Positions 41,136 through 50,663 of a stretch of 64,000 bases of DNA are shown here, piece after piece (positions within the stretch are counted from its first letter, which is position 1; each line of letters opens with the position of its first letter). The stretch spans positions 448,001 through 512,000 of the forward strand of contig OZ243913.1 in NCBI GenBank assembly GCA_965213705.1, given 5' to 3'. Below the pieces are notes generated by a model that saw only the letters and a program-made list of their open reading frames with translations, was not told the DNA's origin and made no database searches. The translations under genes and the position numbers were made by a program. The stretch is from Trueperaceae bacterium (GTDB taxonomy: Bacteria > Deinococcota > Deinococci > Deinococcales > Trueperaceae).

Positions 41136-41600
41136 TCACGGATGGTTGTTTGGATTTTCAACCGTCAAATCTTCAGCCTGTGCCGCATTGTTCAGCTCCT
41201 TATCTGCGGAAACTAAAGTCAGCGGCAACAACCCGTATCCAAGTCTTTCACCCTTTGTCTCTAATGCAGCTGCCAACTGGACCGCGTCATAACCGCGTAA
41301 GCTGTAGGTCTCTGCTAGGCGTAGTGCTGTCACAATGACAGATTCGCTTATCGCAATGTGTGTAAAACGGAGCGGAAACTCTCGCCGCAAACGTCGTAAC
41401 GCCTTCGATGTTTGGTCGGCTGAAAGCGTCTTGCCTTTCTGCCTGCGAATCAAAGCCGCACAAACTTCGACTTCCGTTATCCTTGCCGCGTAAAGTCGGT
41501 TTTTCGCCGCTGGGCGTAGCAAATTCAAAACGTATCTGCTGCCGCGTTCCTACGCAAAGCGTTTGACAAAGGCACTGCTTTCAAGAAAATAAGCTGGCAC
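41136..41600 (-). pseudogene. vapC: PIN-domain toxin (VapC) with an in-frame TAG at codon 17
   Basis: GTG at 41600 reads MPAYFLESSAFVKRFA*ERGSRYVLNLL...; TAG at 41550-41552; downstream LRGYDAVQLA and LVSAD PIN motifs are intact. Confidence 0.8.
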
Positions 41601-41881
41601 TAGCGGCGTTCACGAATAATGGTTTCTGACAGTGGCTCGCCTTCGACCTTAATCAGTTCAAACGTGTCGAACTCCGCGTCGGGTTCGCCTCGAGTGGCAA
41701 TGTTACTGGTAACGCCTTTGGATAAAAGGTAACGCTCGAACTCGTCCTCGAGGCGTTCGGCTTCTTCGTCCGGCAGTGCGGCTTCTTTTTCACGCAGGTA
41801 GTTTGCCAACTCATCAGCCACTTGACGCGCGTCGCTCAAGGGCAGTTTTTGAATTTCGTTCAGAACTTCTGTTGGTGTCAT
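41600..41881 (-). CDS. Putative antitoxin
   Basis: 93 aa, acidic, ends GEPLSETIIRERR (VapB-like tail); 1-nt overlap with the PIN gene start. Confidence 0.7.
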   Translation of the reverse strand: MTPTEVLNEIQKLPLSDARQVADELANYLREKEAALPDEEAERLEDEFERYLLSKGVTSNIATRGEPDAEFDTFELIKVEGEPLSETIIRERR

Positions 41882-41909: not shown

Positions 41910-44597
41910 TTAGGTGAGCTTTTTCAGAAAAATAGACTCTCTACCCCGCTCCGTTAAGAAGTACAAGTTCTCTCTGGCACGGGTTATTGCCACATAAAAA
42001 AGCCTTTTTTCTTCCTCATAGGCGTCAGCTAAGCTGCGACCAAAAAGTCTATAAAGTTCGTTATCAGGATGAAGAAGTGGGAATTTGTTCTCGGTCACCT
42101 CAAGAATTATGACGACATCAGCCTCTTTACCTTTCATTTTGTGTACTGTCTCTACTCTAATTTTGTCAAAATCAACTTGAAGCCCTTTTTTGACTTCACT
42201 GAGCAAATTTTCCAAGAGCTTGTCCCTAAACTCGGCAAGTGTTACGCCCGAGCCAACGCGTCCTGTTCGGGAAAGGATGTCAAGTGTCGTATCTGGCTTA
42301 GTTTTGAAATGTTCACGGGCAATGTTGAAACAAAGTTTGAGATACTTTGCCTCTGTAGAAAAGTCAATCCTAGCATCCTTCGTTGGACCGCTACCGGAGT
42401 TGTCAGTGTTGAAGCTGAATTTTTTTTCTTCTCCTTTAAGAATCCAAGCGTCGCCATCTTCAATATTCCGAACAATAAATTTACCGGCTGGCTTTGATGG
42501 CAAAGCCCTAGAAGGCGCACCCAATCCTTCCATGAAACGATTGCCCAATTCGACGATTTTTCTTTGGCTTCTAAAATTAGTGCTTAGAAGTGCAATGTCT
42601 GAAGGGGGATAATTGTCGGCAAATTTGTAGAAGTATTTTAGGTCTGACCCAGCAAAGCCGTTAATAGCCTGCCAATCATCGCCAACGGCAACAATTTTCA
42701 GGTCGGGGTTAACATTTCTTACAGACTCAACCAGCTGATAGAAAGCTTTTGAAAAATCTTGAAATTCGTCAATCAGCAGCCACTCGAGTTCTTTGAGATT
42801 GCCGCCCTGATTCTCCTCACCAATCATGCAATCTCCGCGACGCTCATCAACGACGACTTTAGCTTTCAAGAGTAGATCATCAAAATCAATTTGTCCTTCG
42901 GCAATCATCTGTGATTCATAGCGAGAGTAGACATGTTGCGCTACCCACAAAAACGCAGCCTCTCGCTCTTCCGTCGAATGGTAGTCTTCAATTTTCTTAC
43001 GTGCGTCATCTGCTGTCCAACCAAGCTGCTTAGCTTTTTTTATAAAACTTAGAAACATGTCCAAAAGGCGAATTTTGTATTTTCCCTTTGAAATGACAAG
43101 CTTACGGTACAATTCATCAAAGGGTAGCTTCTTACAGGTTACGCCATTTTCTTCCAAACGCGCTTTAAGCTTGTCCTCAAAGTTTTTTCTCCTCTTTTTG
43201 ATATTTTTCTCGTCGTATAAAATATCACGAGGTGAAGTTTCAATTAGGGTATACTCGGGTTTCACGTCACGCCAGTATTCACGTTTCCAGCGCATTTCTT
43301 CAACATATTCTTCGAAGGTTTTGTTCCGCCACGGTGTTGGTTTTGGATCAAACTCATCCACACCCCAATGCTCCAAGACATACTTCTTTTCTGCAACCTT
43401 GAACGTAAAATCAGGATGGTAACCTCTACCTTTACCTTTTGGTAAAAAGTACTGCTCATAAGAATAAGAAATATCGTGCTCGAAAAGGAAGTCCGCAATG
43501 TATTTTTCTGGTTGAGACCTCACTAAATTTCCAAGAAGCGTCGGGTACCTGCGACTGCGTAATATTGCACCAGCATCAACTTCGTTTGCCTGCTCAGAGT
43601 ACAAATGATTGCGTTGTTGTTGATAGCCCTCAGCGCTTTGGTAAGTTGCCAGATTGTCAAACTGATTCGCCGCGGCCCTAAAAAACTCGTACAGTGTTTC
43701 CTTAAATTCAAATGTGTCGCTTTCAAGGTCTCTGATACAGTTTGCTAAGAACAGTTGTTGCCTTTTATTGTTGTCTTCGTCTACCAGCAATTCAAAAGAA
43801 TGCTTTTCTGGTTGAACAATCTTACAAGCTAAACTGTGAAAGGTACGAGCGTTCTTGAACTCTTTATACTTATAGTCTACTGAAATTCTATCAAGTATTT
43901 CCTCTTTGGCTTGCCTATTGAAAGCAAGTATGAGAATGTTGTTGGGGTTAACTCCGTAGCGTTCTATCAAAATGGCAGTTTTGAGAGCTAAAGCCGTAGT
44001 TTTTCCCGAGCCAGCTCGAGCTTTGAGTTGTACGTTTTGAGATATTTTTGCTAGCGCTAATGCTTTTTCATCGTCACTGGCAAAATCTACGTTAAACTTG
44101 CTGAAAAATTTCTTTAGATAATCTGCTTTGAGCTGTTCAAATTTGCCAACTTCAACAAATTCCAAATTGTCAAGGTAAAGCTGGTCTGCCTGAGAAAACT
44201 CACAGGCATCTAGTAACGATTTCACTTGTTCGACGGTGTCCTGCGCTTTTTTGTTTCTATAAACAAACTCTTCTCGCTCTTCTTTGGTTAAAGGTTGATT
44301 GTTTTCGTTCAAGTAGTTAAGCTTCCTAAGCTCGGCAAGTTGATTAGTACGGAGTAACCCGCAGTCTCTAAATACGACATCCGCCTCAGACCAAAGGCCC
44401 TTTTCAAGCAACTCTTTGAGTTTGAAAAATGCTTCGTTTAAAGCATTCTCTAACTGGGAAAGATACATGGTTTTCTCTTCGGCACTCAGCTCTTTTTTTA
44501 GACTTTGAAAGTGTTGCTTTGCTTTATTTATTTCAAGCCTGTCCAGGTGCATTACGATGAATCTGTATGCTACGGTCATTTCAGAAATTCCCCTCAC
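41910..44597 (-). CDS. UvrD/helicase IV-like SF1 helicase with inserted PD-(D/E)XK-like nuclease domain
   Basis: ARAGSGKT, LIDEFQD, VGDDWQAINGFAGS, TNFRS, TVHKMKGKE, EEKRLFYVAITRA; insertion VRSQPE..IADFL..YSYE..PDF..LEHWG; visibly AT-rich. Confidence 0.85.
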   Translation of the reverse strand: MRGISEMTVAYRFIVMHLDRLEINKAKQHFQSLKKELSAEEKTMYLSQLENALNEAFFKLKELLEKGLWSEADVVFRDCGLLRTNQLAELRKLNYLNENNQPLTKEEREEFVYRNKKAQDTVEQVKSLLDACEFSQADQLYLDNLEFVEVGKFEQLKADYLKKFFSKFNVDFASDDEKALALAKISQNVQLKARAGSGKTTALALKTAILIERYGVNPNNILILAFNRQAKEEILDRISVDYKYKEFKNARTFHSLACKIVQPEKHSFELLVDEDNNKRQQLFLANCIRDLESDTFEFKETLYEFFRAAANQFDNLATYQSAEGYQQQRNHLYSEQANEVDAGAILRSRRYPTLLGNLVRSQPEKYIADFLFEHDISYSYEQYFLPKGKGRGYHPDFTFKVAEKKYVLEHWGVDEFDPKPTPWRNKTFEEYVEEMRWKREYWRDVKPEYTLIETSPRDILYDEKNIKKRRKNFEDKLKARLEENGVTCKKLPFDELYRKLVISKGKYKIRLLDMFLSFIKKAKQLGWTADDARKKIEDYHSTEEREAAFLWVAQHVYSRYESQMIAEGQIDFDDLLLKAKVVVDERRGDCMIGEENQGGNLKELEWLLIDEFQDFSKAFYQLVESVRNVNPDLKIVAVGDDWQAINGFAGSDLKYFYKFADNYPPSDIALLSTNFRSQRKIVELGNRFMEGLGAPSRALPSKPAGKFIVRNIEDGDAWILKGEEKKFSFNTDNSGSGPTKDARIDFSTEAKYLKLCFNIAREHFKTKPDTTLDILSRTGRVGSGVTLAEFRDKLLENLLSEVKKGLQVDFDKIRVETVHKMKGKEADVVIILEVTENKFPLLHPDNELYRLFGRSLADAYEEEKRLFYVAITRARENLYFLTERGRESIFLKKLT

Positions 44598-44706
44598 AGT
44601 GAAGACGTTACCTCGAGCCTAAAGTGATAGCTCGAGATACGAAACCCTTCCCGCATGTAAAACTTGTGCGCCCCGAACCGCTGCACGGTCAAGTCGAGAT
44701 GAAGAA
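44594..44706 (-). pseudogene. Duplicated 3' end of the GNAT gene
   Basis: Encodes ILHLDLTVQRFGAHKFYMREGFRISSYHFRLEVT, near-identical in DNA and protein to the C-terminus of the GNAT at 45391-45497. Confidence 0.85.
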
Positions 44707-44720
44707 TCTGAATTGCACAG

Positions 44721-44999
44721 TCAAGCGCTTTTGGGCAGGGCGACAACCTCATCGGGTTCTGCGAGCGCTGTTTCACCGATAGCGTCCCAGTCGATAACGG
44801 CTACCCAAATGTTCTCATCGGGTGAAAACTGGACGCGACCGTCTACCTCTAAGTCTTCGCTGACGAGCGTGAGACACAGCCCTTCTTTTAAGACGATACG
44901 TTGCCGCGCCAAGGCCTGTACCGTGCCGACGCAGTTGAGGCGCAAACGGCCCTTTGCATCGGCGCTGTGAAAGTCGGCGTAAACACGCGGCGCGTTCAT
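44721..44999 (-). CDS. Hypothetical protein, candidate immunity protein/antitoxin
   Basis: 92 aa, acidic C-terminus, 9 nt downstream of the candidate toxin. Confidence 0.6.
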   Translation of the reverse strand: MNAPRVYADFHSADAKGRLRLNCVGTVQALARQRIVLKEGLCLTLVSEDLEVDGRVQFSPDENIWVAVIDWDAIGETALAEPDEVVALPKSA

Positions 45000-45008
45000 G
45001 GACGTAGT

Positions 45009-45335
45009 TTACCATTTCCGCGTCGGATTGACCTGAGTGGGTGTGAGCAGTCGGCTGGCCGCTGTCGGCGTGAGACCTGTCAGGGTGGCGTGATAGGTAC
45101 TTCTACCGGATGTACGAATCACGTCGCCGCCGAGTTCGCGAACACGAGCCACCGTCGTTATACCCAAGCGACCATGAGGAATAGTTTTCGCCAATTCTTC
45201 AACGTTGCCAAGACCACATTCGACGGAAACGCCCGTCACGCCACTCGGATGGGTCGCCGTAGCTCGAGCGATGTCTTCAGGTTGATTCCGCCCGCCCCTG
45301 ACGACAAGTGCTTCGTCAGGAAGCTCACTGTCCAC
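45009..45335 (-). CDS. Hypothetical protein, candidate ART-fold/polymorphic-toxin-like domain
   Basis: LVVRGG...GVSV...TTVARVRELGGDV...HATL pattern that I associate with Rhs C-terminal toxin domains. Confidence 0.55.
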   Translation of the reverse strand: MDSELPDEALVVRGGRNQPEDIARATATHPSGVTGVSVECGLGNVEELAKTIPHGRLGITTVARVRELGGDVIRTSGRSTYHATLTGLTPTAASRLLTPTQVNPTRKW

Positions 45336-45390
45336 GGCTCGCGTTTAACATCACCTCAAAGTTGGTCGGACGATGTTCCCAAGCTCGTTC

Positions 45391-45822
45391 TCACGGCGTC
45401 ACCTCGAGCCCGAAGTGATAGCTCGAGATATGGAACCCTTCCCGCATGTAAAACTTGTGCGCCCCAAAGCGCTGCACGCCCGAGTCGAGGTGGAGGAGGA
45501 TGCAGTTTTGCTCGAGCGCATACGCTTTCAAAAACTCAATCAAAGCTTCGCCGTGTCCCCGCGAGCGGTGCGCTTCGTCGGTTACGAGGTCGTACACGTA
45601 CAGGTTCTTGCCCCAGGCCAGCGCCTCACCGATGTCGAAACCGGCGACAGCGGCGACTTTGCCGTCTGAGAGAGTGTAAGCAAGGCGGTAGCCGCGGGCG
45701 CGCTGACGCTCGAGCTGCGCCAAAAATTCTTCTCGCTTCAAGTGCGGGCGCAACTGGTGCAGCACCGGGAAGCAAGCGAGCCGCTCTTCGTCCGTGTCGG
45801 CCAAGTAAACTTTAGAAACCAC
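45391..45822 (-). CDS. GNAT acetyltransferase
   Basis: LYVYDLVTDEAHRSRGHG, LHLDSGVQRFGAHKFY; overlaps the iolC stop. Confidence 0.88.
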   Translation of the reverse strand: MVSKVYLADTDEERLACFPVLHQLRPHLKREEFLAQLERQRARGYRLAYTLSDGKVAAVAGFDIGEALAWGKNLYVYDLVTDEAHRSRGHGEALIEFLKAYALEQNCILLHLDSGVQRFGAHKFYMREGFHISSYHFGLEVTP

Positions 45823-46834
45823 CACGAGCCTCCACAAAGTCTAAAACCTCGTCTTCATAGCCCATAAAGTTCGCGCAGCCGTGGCGGGTGACGACGATGG
45901 CACCACAGGCGTTGCCCATGCGGGCGCTTTTGAACCAGTCCCAGCCGTTGAGCCGCCCGTAAATAAAGCCGCTGGCAAAGGCGTCCCCCGCGCCAAGGAC
46001 ATTGTAAATCTCGACCGGGAAGCCGGGGACTTCGGTGACTTCGCCGGTTCTGAGGTGGACCGTTGCGCCCTGCGCGCCGCGCTTCACCACCAGGGCTTCG
46101 GGGCCGTTGGGCACGTTCAAAATAGCCTCAATATTGGCGCTCAAATCTCCTTTAATCTCGGGCGCGCTGATTTGCTGGTGTTTGATGACGATGTCGTCGG
46201 CGCTTTGTACCATGCCTGCGTTGACCTCTTCTTCGGTGCCGAGGGCCACGTCGACCAGGGGTAGCAGAGCGCGCACGGTGACGCCGAAGGCGCGCGGGTC
46301 GTGCCACTGGTCAGCGCGAAAGTCGAGGTCTAAAAAGACGGTTTTGCCCGCGCGCTTAGCTTGCTCGGCGGCAAAAAAGGTGGCGCTGCGGCTCGGCTCG
46401 CGGCTCAGGCCGGTGCCGGAGATTTCCAGGGCTCGAGCCTCCGCAATGGGTGCCGCTAAAACATCATCAATCGTCAGCTCGATGTCTGCGCAGTTGTCGC
46501 GGTAATACACCAGCGGAAAGGTGTCCGGCGGCTCGATGCCGAGGACGACGGCGCTCGAGCGCCGCCCCAACTTGACCGGAATATAGTCGGTTACGACGCC
46601 CTCGTTTTTCAAAAAATGCAGGATGAAGTCGCCGACTTTGTCCCGACCCACAGCCGTGAGGAGCGCGACGCTCAACCCTAAACGCTTCGTGCCGACGGCG
46701 ATGTTCGTGGGACTGCCGCCGACGTAAGCGGCGAAGCTCGTAATCTCTTCGAAAGGTGCGCCCACGTCGTTTGAATAGAGGTCGATGGAACTGCGGCCCA
46801 TCGTGATGAGGTCGAGGGGTTCGGCCATGCTCAC
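45812..46834 (-). CDS. iolC: 5-dehydro-2-deoxygluconokinase
   Basis: MGRSSIDLY, YVGGSPTNIAVG, YYRDNCAD, GAGDAF (PfkB). Confidence 0.92.
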   Translation of the reverse strand: MSMAEPLDLITMGRSSIDLYSNDVGAPFEEITSFAAYVGGSPTNIAVGTKRLGLSVALLTAVGRDKVGDFILHFLKNEGVVTDYIPVKLGRRSSAVVLGIEPPDTFPLVYYRDNCADIELTIDDVLAAPIAEARALEISGTGLSREPSRSATFFAAEQAKRAGKTVFLDLDFRADQWHDPRAFGVTVRALLPLVDVALGTEEEVNAGMVQSADDIVIKHQQISAPEIKGDLSANIEAILNVPNGPEALVVKRGAQGATVHLRTGEVTEVPGFPVEIYNVLGAGDAFASGFIYGRLNGWDWFKSARMGNACGAIVVTRHGCANFMGYEDEVLDFVEARGGF

Positions 46835-46883: not shown

Positions 46884-47132
46884 TCAACGTTCATGCAGCT
46901 CGTCGCGTGTCCAGGTGATTTTGCCGTGAGTACCAAGTTCAAAGCCTTTGTCCATGAGTGCCATAGCTTTGCGGCGGGCTTGCTCATATTCATCAGCCTC
47001 GAGCACGATTTCCTCGAGCTTTTCTTTGAGCAATGCCGAAACCGAAGTGCCCCGCTTCGCCGCGATAATTTTCACCTGCTTCAAAAGCTCCTTGGGAAGA
47101 GACAGGGTAATGTTCTGCTTTTCTGCGTTCAC
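46884..47132 (-). CDS. RHH/CopG-type antitoxin (orphan)
   Basis: QNITLSLP..AAKRGTSVS..; WTRDELHER tail typical of PIN-partner antitoxins. Confidence 0.75.
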   Translation of the reverse strand: MNAEKQNITLSLPKELLKQVKIIAAKRGTSVSALLKEKLEEIVLEADEYEQARRKAMALMDKGFELGTHGKITWTRDELHER

Positions 47133-47225: not shown

Positions 47226-49193
47226 CTACCGCCGAAGGATTGTGTTGTAATCACATTCTGCCTGCGCATATTTTTGAACGGCTTGTTTGAGGTGAGGAAG
47301 GTATAACTCACGGTTCCTCATAAGTTTATCGCGTGTTCCCTCTAATCTGTCGGCACCACCAGCAAGTTCGGAGGCGAGCTTCTGTTTGAGTGTTTGAACT
47401 TCCTGTTCAACGCGCTTTAGGTCTTGTTGCGTGACGGCCAAGGCAGGATTGAAAACAAAGCGACTTTCAACGCGCTTTCTCCACTGCAAAAGTTTGTCGG
47501 TTAGTTTTGGTCCGAATGAAGGCACCCGCTCAACAGCTTTACGGTTGATGTCGGCAGCCGATTCAATACCGAATGACCTTAAGGCGGCAATGCGGGCTGG
47601 ACCAACCCCACTAATATTAGCGTTGTCGATTAAATGATTGTTCAGAAACCGTTTGAATTGCAACTCTTTCGCATTGTCTTTGAGTGCCTGAACTTTCTGG
47701 CCTTTAATTTGATTCAAGTGGTCGTAGTCATACTTTGCCTTATTTAAGCGGTTAAAAGTACCTTCAAAGCTTTCAACTGCACACTCTTTTTCCCACCGCG
47801 ACTGCACCTCATCCCATTTTCTTTTTGCTCCTTCTAAGTTGCTGTTTGCAGTCCGTGTTACTTGTTCTACATCCCTCCTACCTAAAGCTAGGTCAAACCA
47901 AATGACTCCAACCAACCCCCAAAAGATTACAAGTCCCGACAACAAACCGGTGAAGCTCAAAAATAGGAGCAAAACCGTAACCAATACTTTCGTTATCATT
48001 CGGCTTTGACGGCGTCTGTGCGCTTCTAAAACAGGTTTTGAAGTCTGCACCGGAGTAGGCTTGACTGTCGGCAATCCTGGCGGCGGAGATACTTCTGTAA
48101 TCTTACGCCATGCTGCCTCAACATCAATACTGGCCCCGCTAGCGTTAACCTTTATATAACCGACTGTGAAAAATAGGACACCTGGTACAGACTCGAGTTC
48201 GCACCAAGAGCATTTTGGTAAGTGACCGTAGTACAAGTGGTTGGGATTTGCCTTACAAACGACAAGCTGTGATTCTGATTTGGCTAGTGCATCTACCCAC
48301 TGCTTCGGATCAGGACGAGACCAACCTTTGTTTTGGCGATAACCCCCCGCGCCCTCTTTGGAAAAAGCTTGAATAAACAACTGCGCGACCTGGGTTGGCA
48401 CGTCTTTTAACAGCAGAGTATTCGGTGGGGGTTTTATTTGCATCGCCTGTGCGGTACTACCATAAACAAACTTAAATGCGGTTATGGCTTTCTCAATCGG
48501 AACATATTCGGGGCCAAGCGGTGTACCTGAGAATGGATGCCGCCCCATGAACAAAAGGTGAAAGATGAGAACCGCAAGCCCAAAGGCATCGTGATCTTTT
48601 GTGCGCTCCTCATTAGTTAACGTTCTGCCTTGTAACTCGGGCGGAGTGAATGTAGGCACACCTACGGGGCAATAGTGATAAACACCGCCGACATTTACCT
48701 GAAAGCTGTCACAGTCAATAAGTTTGACCATTCCCTTTTCAGACACCATCAAATTGCCCTGGTTGACATCGCCAATTATGTGACCATGCTCGTGAACAGT
48801 AGCAAAAGCCCTAGAAACGTTTGCGGCTACACGAATAAGAAACGCCCAGGTTGCATCAGGGAACTCGTTTATCCGGCTTTTGGGGCCGTAGAGAGTATGT
48901 ATATCCTTGAAGCCACTGGCACGCGACATGATAAATCCCTGAACCGGGCCATCTCGGGTTAAGCGGAGGGTATCCTTCGGCCAAGCGGCGAGTTTGCTTA
49001 AAGCATCAGTTTGACCATCAACCATGTAACGCAATTTCTGCGCCTTGTCGGTAGGTGGGGGAGAATGGTAAAGCTTTGCTACGAACTCAGACGCTCCACT
49101 TACTTCAAAAACCGCGCCCTCGCCGCCTCTACCGAGTTCTGAGCCAAGACTAACGGGATGACCAAGGTGACTAAAAACTTGTTTTGGCGTCAT
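47226..49193 (-). CDS. YegI-like Ser/Thr kinase with TM segments and C-terminal HhH (TerY-P triad)
   Basis: LGRGGEGAVF, VAKLY, IGDVNQGN, LIDCDS, FTPPELQG, GRHPF; ISGVGPARIAALRSFG; AT-rich. Confidence 0.88.
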   Translation of the reverse strand: MTPKQVFSHLGHPVSLGSELGRGGEGAVFEVSGASEFVAKLYHSPPPTDKAQKLRYMVDGQTDALSKLAAWPKDTLRLTRDGPVQGFIMSRASGFKDIHTLYGPKSRINEFPDATWAFLIRVAANVSRAFATVHEHGHIIGDVNQGNLMVSEKGMVKLIDCDSFQVNVGGVYHYCPVGVPTFTPPELQGRTLTNEERTKDHDAFGLAVLIFHLLFMGRHPFSGTPLGPEYVPIEKAITAFKFVYGSTAQAMQIKPPPNTLLLKDVPTQVAQLFIQAFSKEGAGGYRQNKGWSRPDPKQWVDALAKSESQLVVCKANPNHLYYGHLPKCSWCELESVPGVLFFTVGYIKVNASGASIDVEAAWRKITEVSPPPGLPTVKPTPVQTSKPVLEAHRRRQSRMITKVLVTVLLLFLSFTGLLSGLVIFWGLVGVIWFDLALGRRDVEQVTRTANSNLEGAKRKWDEVQSRWEKECAVESFEGTFNRLNKAKYDYDHLNQIKGQKVQALKDNAKELQFKRFLNNHLIDNANISGVGPARIAALRSFGIESAADINRKAVERVPSFGPKLTDKLLQWRKRVESRFVFNPALAVTQQDLKRVEQEVQTLKQKLASELAGGADRLEGTRDKLMRNRELYLPHLKQAVQKYAQAECDYNTILRR

Positions 49194-49986
49194 CCTTGCT
49201 CTCAAAAATCTGGCGTGAAGCTAGCACTAATGTTTTATCGTCATCAGTGCGTTCATTAACCCTATCTGAGTTGAGAAAGTCTGCCAGCAGCAACGTTAGC
49301 TCAACGGAATAACCAGCTTCGGATTTGCCAACAGCGCTTAGCATCGGCTTGAAAAAACGTTGGTGGGGCTCTTTAATATCCATTTGCAGAGCAAGGCTTT
49401 GAATTCCATCGGTAAACATAGTCAGTTCCGTAATCCTCTGTTCCAAGAAGAGATACTCGAGACGAAATCTAGCTTCACTTCCGGTAACGAAGTTGGTTGA
49501 ACTGGCATACTCGCCGCTTTGAGGCCAGAAAGCACATTTATAGACATCGGCTTCCTTGTCCGTGGCATAAACTATCGCCCCATCACCAATTTGAACAAAC
49601 ACTGCTTGACTTTCACTGACAACGGTAGCCAACAGTGTGCAGGCAAATTCACGTAACTCCACACCGCGATCAAGGGCACGCTCACGCAGTTCGTTTTGTA
49701 AGTGTACTACCCAATCTTCGACCAAAGTCCGACTAATATCACTTATTGAGTCACCACATTCAACAAGCTTTACAACCTCGTCTACCCAAAGCTCGCAGGC
49801 AAGAGTTGACCCGTCTGCGGAATGTAGAGCGCTACCCGCACCATCAGCGACAACAGCAACAAGTAACTCTTCGTTCTCGGAATCTTTTAATACAGCACAC
49901 TTACTCGCGTCCTGGCAGTGTGTGCGATTGAGGACGTGAGACGTACCTATAACAGTTGCGAAAGCATAACGCCAGCGCGGCGTCAT
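49171..49986 (-). CDS. PP2C-like phosphatase (YegK-like; TerY-P triad)
   Basis: [30 protein letters not shown]. Confidence 0.9.
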
Positions 49987-50663
49987 TCAACCATAGCCCA
50001 GCCATCAGGTGTAGCCGGGTTTATAAGCTTCACGGCGTCTCCTGGATTCGACTGTGAGACGGAGCTTAGCGAGTTGGAAAGCCAAGAAAAAAGGTCTCTA
50101 AAGCGTAAGCCGTCCAACTTAAGTGGGTCACGTACAGAGATTTGCTTGAGCTTGCTGATGTCCGCACCCTCAACACCTACTGAAAAGAACATAAACGACT
50201 TAGACTCTTCACCTTCGCGCACTTGCTGTGCAGCGCTTTGCCATTCATCGGTAGGACCACCGTCGGTGATAAGAAATATCCACGGGCGATAGTATGAAAC
50301 TCCGTTCTGACGGTACACTTCCTTTCGGTCCCGCAGCATCTCCAAGCCTTTTCTTATAGCTGCACCCATAGGTGTGTCGCCCTGAGAGCTAAGGTGGGGT
50401 GGCTGAAAAATATCCGCCGTTTGAAAGTCAATTTTAACGTCAACCGGTCCAAAAGTAACGATAGCGACTTCGACTCTTTTTGCCGCAAGTGTATCGGCCA
50501 TTAGCTCGTCTTTGAAGGTCTGAATGCCTAAATTGAGTTGGGAGATTGGTTGACCCGACATTGAACCTGAAGTGTCGAGTAGCAGCAAGCACGGGCACCT
50601 TGGTTCAGGGTTTTCTGCAAATTCGGCAGCATCGAAAGGGATTTGGTCATAGTTGTCGAACAC
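49983..50663 (-). CDS. vWA domain protein (TerY/YegL-like)
   Basis: [38 protein letters not shown]. Confidence 0.9.

Follow-up and report, generated by a model that had tools for sequence, protein, structure and literature searches.

A predicted ADP-ribosyltransferase-fold toxin and its partner form a stand-alone cassette between copies of an acetyltransferase gene end in a Trueperaceae bacterium

Rhs-type proteins can end in a C-terminal ADP-ribosyltransferase (ART)-like toxin domain with a small gene directly downstream whose product is predicted to occlude the cleft for nicotinamide adenine dinucleotide (NAD), as the available text on TreX/TriX (PMC11606950), TreThr (PMC13617354), Tne5 (PMC13285283), and, via PMC11833690, RhsP2/RhsI2 describes. 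Here we report a gene pair whose family resembles these systems in all of these respects, ORF A and ORF B (open reading frames, ORFs), from a 64,000-nucleotide stretch of a Trueperaceae bacterium genome (assembly GCA_965213705.1, contig OZ243913.1, positions 448,001 to 512,000; "the window"). Unlike the Rhs toxins, ORF A matches no solved chain in sequence, is smaller, carries an R-S-H instead of an R-S-E triad, and belongs to a large clade without delivery domain, while ORF B is PUA-like. Characterized Rhs ART toxins are described as modifying FtsZ, rRNA, EF-Tu, or tRNA or as hydrolyzing NAD (PMC13617354, PMC13285283, and PMC11606950, as available), so that the fold alone cannot fix the substrate of ORF A.

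Tse2/Tsi2 of Pseudomonas aeruginosa (PDB 5ako; PMC6099711, available text), where the toxin is a type VI secretion substrate, likewise combines a small ART-like toxin with an immunity protein that occludes its active site. The ART-fold toxin–antitoxin (TA) systems DarTG, ParST, MbcTA, and NatRT (types II and IV) are stand-alone two-gene modules as well, though of other families (Z 2.3–3.4 to ORF A). Their antitoxins are of macrodomain or helix-turn-helix (HTH)/Xre types; ORF B is neither, and the toxin gene comes first here. How TA systems enter chromosomes is still called unclear in the available text of a 2026 study, which links TA acquisition in Photorhabdus to transposases and resolution sites (PMC13617665).

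ORF A (108 amino acids, GTG start, 45009..45335) and ORF B (92 amino acids, ATG start, 44721..44999) lie on the minus strand between two copies of the 3' end of a GNAT acetyltransferase gene. It is probable in our view that they are a stand-alone cassette whose family also forms the tips of Rhs-type proteins, likely a TA pair with the partner placed over the toxin's active site, and that this cassette was inserted at the GNAT gene end with duplication of ~100 bp. Homologs and structural models suggest that ORF A represents a real, apparently unnamed family of ART-fold toxins with a cognate binding partner.

ORF A matches no family in Pfam, NCBIfam, PADLOC, or PHROGs, its 111 aligned homologs match Pfam and NCBIfam only in their N-terminal extensions, and the profiles of both ORFs match no PDB sequence. 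Homologs about as long as ORF A number 1,319, with 637 representatives at 50% identity. The initial annotation had suspected an ART fold from the spacing of an arginine, a serine, and a histidine, and the predicted structure (predicted local distance difference test, pLDDT, 95) bears this out: By structural comparison, 28 of the 30 top rows are ART folds, as assigned from titles, which points to a minimal ART domain in ORF A. KptA/Tpt1 is the best match (Z 6.0–6.1, rmsd 3.0–3.2, 85 residues aligned at 13% identity), and HopF2 (Z 5.3), TreX (4.2), Scabin (3.9), DarT (3.4), and Tse2 (3.4) are also among the matches. A Foldseek ranking and a repeat of the structural comparison gave the same order. 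We base the fold assignment on the uniformity of this list, the single scores being modest.

In the model, R13, S37, and H82 lie on strands 10–14, 34–41, and 82–86. All 84 close homologs have these three residues, and a more diverse set of 111 retains them in 105, 108, and 109 cases, respectively. By strand position, without residue-level superposition, R13 (strand 1) and S37 (strand 2) fit the Arg and Ser/Thr of the R-S-E scheme. The catalytic glutamate of that clade is missing, with H82 on strand 82–86 and no conserved acid after D71, and R-S-H fits none of the three canonical ART triads listed in the available text of PMC13617354. The Pfam Tse2 family matched none of the 111 ORF A members at E≤0.5. 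A similar Arg-Ser-His triad is ascribed to Tse2.

Some cyanobacterial and Poribacteria homologs (P0019, P0110, P0114, P0116, and P0118) carry the label "flavoredoxin" in public databases, i.e., an FMN (flavin mononucleotide)-binding split barrel, an identity supported neither by the ART-like model nor by any Pfam or NCBIfam match. Nor is the toxin sequence of this genome degenerate, as it departs from conserved columns at only 2 positions, which is typical for the family. DUF6098 of Actinomycetota resembles a cyanobacterial homolog by language-model features (0.93), which is a lead only. We found no description of the ORF A family in a literature search that had no family name to use and covered few subscription papers. 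No motif match was found to the toxin families in the available text of PMC3482391 or to the nine validated in a bioRxiv screen (10.1101/2021.10.19.465003).

A relation to Rhs C-terminal toxins, as first proposed from the residue spacing, is evident among 57 longer homologs, of which 52 carry the domain at their C-terminus. A source names 19 of them RHS repeat-associated. RHS repeats were detected at locus L131. A search of ~1,000 genomes around G364 and G609 yielded four full-length fused loci; at one of these, a DUF6443-led protein of 1,459 amino acids without detected RHS repeats is followed 9 nt downstream by an ORF B homolog (E 9e-23). The stand-alone toxins form one branch among diverse fused forms (30 rows plus one longer ORF of 31, SH-aLRT branch support 93) in a quick, midpoint-drawn tree of 91 of the 277 domains, which gives no direction of origin.

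ORF B (181 homologs) has no family in Pfam, NCBIfam, PADLOC, or PHROGs either. Its model (pLDDT 86) consists of a PUA-like barrel and a disordered tail. RsmE, through its PUA-like N-terminal domain, is the best match (Z 5.8, i.e., <8; rmsd 4.2; 75 aligned), with other PUA domains also found, and ORF B is net acidic (15 D+E vs 9 K+R). The initial annotation had placed it where an immunity gene would be, which is strengthened by its strict pairing: Wherever a metagenome locus extends ≥250 nt downstream of ORF A, an ORF B homolog follows (74 of 74), as it does in 78 of the 80 overall, these being the best 80 of 230 confirmed loci, all with stand-alone forms. The predicted A–B complex scores 0.86 compared to 0.06 for the best of three controls; the mark used, passed by 116 of 157 solved pairs and by 2 of 215 mismatched ones, is rough here, as we used our own alignments. 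Contacts agree by at least 98% between runs, with a partner pLDDT of 91, and the invariant D9-x-H11 region of ORF B touches R13, S37, R78, and H82 of ORF A. ORF B is predicted to cover the ORF A active site; no similar complex was found in the PDB by sequence. A second candidate immunity family of ~88 amino acids, weakly similar to Ead/Ea22 and phrog_1667, follows a divergent toxin subclade (L124:1229-1492, L129:5637-5912, L130:3970-4263, L039:8612-8878, and L002:2541-2822). At L002, it stands behind a remnant of the first partner.

As the initial annotation had noted, ORF A has no Rhs stalk, and the genome (98% complete) contains no Rhs core, with other delivery types not searched. The pair has the layout of a TA module, i.e., two small adjacent genes, strict linkage, patchy distribution, and no secretion domain. 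Among 128 genomes of the family, ORF A was found in 8, ORF B in 9, and both in 7, at unrelated sites. Ratios of nonsynonymous to synonymous substitution (dN/dS) of 0.10–0.22 for ORF A and 0.03–0.13 for ORF B indicate purifying selection, and R13, S37, and H82 are present in 144, 140, and 142 of 147 stand-alone toxins. Neither GNAT nor any other tested protein of the window had a match beside the pair in 87 loci outside the genus, where the recurrent neighbors are small TA-like genes as read by eye. Comparing this genome with its sister genome of the same genus, G001, the cassette has 14 synonymous differences at 153 sites versus 188 at 649 in three flanking genes (p 8e-8), from which we conclude that it was either shared after the genomes split or recently entered both. 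The initial suggestion of a polymorphic-toxin tip domesticated as a TA module thus holds with regard to a stand-alone, TA-like life. Domestication is not local, however, because the large clade spans many phyla.

Alignment of the family loci identified leaderless-type extended -10 elements on the minus strand before both genes. The element of the partner gene (TG-n-TAAACT, 45006..45014) overlaps the toxin stop codon and ends 6 nt before the ATG, while that of the toxin gene (TG-n-TAAACG, 45342..45350), 6 nt before the GTG, is degenerate and has lost its last T. TAnnnT stands 6 nt before the start in 7 of 8 ORF A and 7 of 7 ORF B genes of the family, with the toxin of this window as sole exception, compared to 2/62 and 7/73 elsewhere, and the motif peaks at the same spacing genome-wide (108/1,677 vs ~15). 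Neither a promoter nor a terminator turned up in a sigma-70 scan. In Deinococcus, such elements drive leaderless transcripts and require the sixth base (PMC12340547, available text); the toxin promoter of this genome is likely weak because its element has lost this base. Read-through from GNAT could possibly transcribe the toxin. Since the partner has no DNA-binding domain, the toxin-to-partner ratio would likely be set by expression signals, the partner having its own promoter or a Shine–Dalgarno site and an ATG, and most toxins having a GTG or lacking any evident standard start.

These signals also bear on a different explanation, in which the pair is an orphan polymorphic-toxin tip with its immunity gene, kept for immunity or as a silent spare with the toxin hardly expressed. 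The toxin-first order is that of Rhs loci, and many stand-alone toxins begin with GTG or TTG or have no standard start 8–19 codons before R13, in contrast to partners with an ATG and often a GGAG. The degenerate toxin -10 element of this genome fits as well, as does G269, which lost ORF A and retained ORF B at a locus common with G267, and two of five pair-bearing relatives have an Rhs gene elsewhere. Yet the stand-alone toxins form their own clade, retain the triad under purifying selection, and in 7 of 8 family loci have a -10 element of their own; at 79 of 80 loci, they begin no more than 93 codons (mostly no more than 35) from a stop, and no upstream Rhs remnant is present. Three of the five relatives, like this genome, have no Rhs core. 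On balance, we hold an orphan tip to be unlikely.

Under the TA explanation, ORF A would be an NAD+-using toxin that is blocked by the partner over its active site and that, when free, would move ADP-ribose from NAD+ onto a cytoplasmic macromolecule. RNA may be the most likely target, if only tentatively, because Tpt1/KptA folds are the nearest and ORF A lacks the R-S-E glutamate. Modification of a protein and plain NAD+ hydrolysis both seem rather doubtful, and an inactive toxin seems quite improbable. The same folds would suit a non-toxic RNA-processing enzyme that is split into a Tpt1/KptA-like ART domain and a PUA-like RNA-binding subunit, given that the PUA-like domains matched belong to RNA-modifying enzymes and that pairing is strict. 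We regard this as very unlikely: The partner is predicted inside the catalytic cleft and is net acidic, the ART domain tips Rhs proteins, and the distribution is patchy with toxin loss. Moreover, the alignment to Tpt1/KptA, an RNA 2'-phosphotransferase, is limited to its C-terminal NAD-binding lobe (residues ~86–180); unlike this enzyme, ORF A lacks the N-terminal RNA-binding lobe and occurs in a conflict-type context.

A TA module of this kind would likely persist as an addiction element. Compatible with this, it might act in abortive infection, with a phage protein or host shut-off releasing the toxin. TA toxins with an ART fold, DarT among them, act against phages (PMC9503650, available text), and the flanks in the window carry a low-GC helicase island and a kinase–PP2C–vWA trio. 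However, no PADLOC model matched, the recurrent neighbors at 80 loci look by eye like small TA-like rather than defense genes, and, according to the available text of PMC13617665, Photorhabdus TA loci seldom cluster with anti-phage systems, so that we consider an anti-phage role fairly unlikely.

Reading along the minus strand, the locus comprises an iolC-like kinase (45812-46834), the GNAT gene (45391..45837; Pfam Acetyltransf_1 PF00583, E 1e-12), which is a host gene outside the cassette, ORF A, ORF B, a GNAT-end remnant, and a low-GC island with an 895-amino-acid UvrD-like gene and a PIN pair. The diverged direct repeat of about 100 bp reported by the initial annotation spans 99 nt at 88% identity and covers the final ~33 GNAT codons. 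Copy 1 (45397..45495, minus strand) is the current GNAT 3' end, and copy 2 (44606..44704, minus strand) is the decaying remnant, with ~690 bp inserted between them. The repeat has an E of 5.8e-30 genome-wide, and a third copy is absent from the 4.25-Mb genome. In agreement with the absence of a recombinase noted at the outset, no integrase or transposase was found in the 12 surrounding ORFs scanned. G001 has an identical layout but different islands on both flanks. Its downstream copy includes the stop codon yet is frameshifted by a 1-nt deletion; the remnants of both genomes are decaying and share 4 letters against both intact ends. The GNAT gene of G001 (L016:9202-9516) has an internal in-frame deletion of 132 bp.

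With an insert <20 kb, a unique repeat >30 bp, and no mobile genes, the GNAT locus resembles insertion with long target duplication, a form in which restriction–modification genes insert and which is reported mainly from species with natural competence (Furuta et al. 2010, PMC2853133, available text). The likeness extends to an addictive gene pair as cargo, no other mobile genes, unique direct repeats >30 bp, and duplications that sometimes overlap gene 3' ends. Unlike those insertions, the TA cargo has no DNA-cutting enzyme of its own, there are many sites per genome, and the repeats are more diverged. The same literature search returned no description of TA pairs with a long target duplication. 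Insertion would likely have combined homologous recombination on one side, through incoming DNA with its own copy of the gene end, with an illegitimate junction on the other, and one homologous plus one non-homologous junction has been proposed for a Helicobacter pylori duplication (PMC4615327, available text).

The duplicated end is not peculiar to the GNAT gene but belongs to a pattern seen around TA pairs throughout the genome. Near this locus in G001, two copies of the glgX 3' end flank a VapBC pair; in this genome, a PIN pair follows glgX, although no glgX-end duplication is present. A blind screen of this genome returned 184 close direct repeats, 55 of them with a gap of 500–1,400 nt, a length ≤260 nt, and an identity ≥74%. 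Of these, 37 had no long ORF across the gap and form 30 regions; the GNAT locus itself was dropped because of an antisense ORF. ORFs from 28 of the 30 regions, chosen by composition score, were scanned, and TA families were found in 18 of the 30: ParE, PIN, PemK, HicA, Phd, MazE, and DUF433/DUF5615 and DUF4160/DUF2442, which we take to be TA. At 7 of these 18, a long host ORF has its 3' end in one of the two copies, while the remaining cases are intergenic, at 5' ends, or array-internal. Overall, 17 of 65 TA-like loci are bracketed compared to 3 of 300 random windows, and such gene-end duplications are likely scars of TA-pair insertion.

Further such loci include an array of at least six TA-like modules with short, mutually similar repeats between them (L151, G000:C1:682922-687966; G000 is this genome) and two repeat-bracketed pairs without a Pfam match at E≤0.01, L164 (G000:C1:2217391-2218490) and L165 (2506901-2507366), which by eye resemble nucleotidyltransferase/HEPN and ParE-type TA pairs. 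At L152 (G000:C1:870975-871715), 41-nt direct repeats enclose a lone gene of the amino-acid-kinase family (UMP-kinase-like), i.e., bracketed cargo is not always TA.

The repeat might instead be the work of a site-specific recombinase that acted in trans on a small circle, or of a tandem duplication unrelated to the cassette. Integrative elements typically restore the 3' end of their target gene, and CTCGAG occurs in 8 of the 17 TA-bracketing repeats versus ~2.5 expected. Against this, bracketing at many loci with varied cargo involves unrelated host sequences of 35–198 nt, and no common att core exists beyond CTCGAG, which is itself very frequent. With 8,868 copies (2.1 per kb, 3.7 times an order-2 model), it is the most over-represented hexamer of this genome, an excess hidden by an order-4 model; the figure given beside it for GCTCGAGC is 2,879. 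Its abundance resembles the cyanobacterial highly iterated palindrome. We thus find either origin of the repeat rather doubtful.

The initial annotation had further proposed that insertion replaced the GNAT C-terminus and displaced the old one downstream. Contigs from one other sample, in which rarer cassette-bearing forms also occur, contain an abundant form in which the far flank directly follows the GNAT stop, 914 nt being skipped (25 and 31 letters on the short side), and two of the letters listed at this joint match the G001 remnant. The model of a displaced old end is thereby weakly supported at the GNAT locus. A low-depth joint that goes back 787, in the likely source sample, was not used; it may come from an excised circle, from a related strain, or from misplaced repeats. 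At four other TA-bracketed sites compared with G001, the cassette is shared at one (96%), and G001 has a single gene end at three. At one of these, the remnant is the closer of the two copies to the uninterrupted end (82/93 vs 70/93 for the current end), meaning that the C-terminus was replaced there.

Several results weigh against insertion of a TA cassette as we propose it. For the toxin, the Foldseek comparison that had been suggested as a check supported the ART-fold ranking but gave no match at E≤0.001 for either model, and the best ORF A Z stays <8, in the range that the comparison tool calls common. No ORF A homologs were found in plasmids, phages, or viral contigs. No HTH, ribbon-helix-helix (RHH), or AbrB match was found in 99 ORF B members, while most type II systems, if not all, have a DNA-binding, autoregulating antitoxin. 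Regarding the pairing, the 80 metagenome loci are partly redundant, and the expectation that homologs occur as Rhs C-termini with the same partner was realized at only one of the four full-length fused loci, the other three (divergent subclade) being followed by the second family. For the scars, bracketing was seen at no more than 2 of the 44 TA-like loci beyond the seed set, so that the 17/65 is circular and a scar marks a minority of TA loci. By a crude ORF test, 3' ends are no more frequent among all 184 repeats (15) than in control placements (15, 16, and 16). At three of four comparable sites (two sites and glgX), the current end rather than the remnant is nearer the sister genome, which remnant decay could also cause.

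Both flanks of the locus differ between the two genomes. The low-GC island (41910-44597 and 41136-41881), absent from G001, encodes the UvrD-like helicase, whose motifs are separated by an unassigned insert of ~230 amino acids; a PIN toxin and a 93-amino-acid partner come next. Upstream of iolC, the trio of vWA, PP2C-like phosphatase, and kinase is inserted, followed by an RHH antitoxin (47226-50663 and 46884-47132) without PIN partner, where G001 carries an RHH–PIN pair.

Taken further, an undescribed class of minimal R-S-H ART toxins may have left Rhs secretion as one widespread addiction or defense clade whose antitoxin is PUA-like and which lacks a transcriptional regulator; this Deinococcota genus, in turn, may take up TA pairs of all types by transformation without mobile-element enzymes, with the new gene end swapped in, the old one left behind, and CTCGAG possibly as a guide. 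We regard this combined scenario as conceivable but would not bet on it. The family as such gives a testable function to >1,300 clustered proteins left hypothetical or labeled "flavoredoxin" and adds a candidate glutamate-free ART chemistry together with two candidate immunity families. It would clearly exemplify the tip of a secreted toxin living on as a TA-like module in the chromosome, and the repeat scars may help to trace how TA systems get into chromosomes with neither integrases nor transposases.

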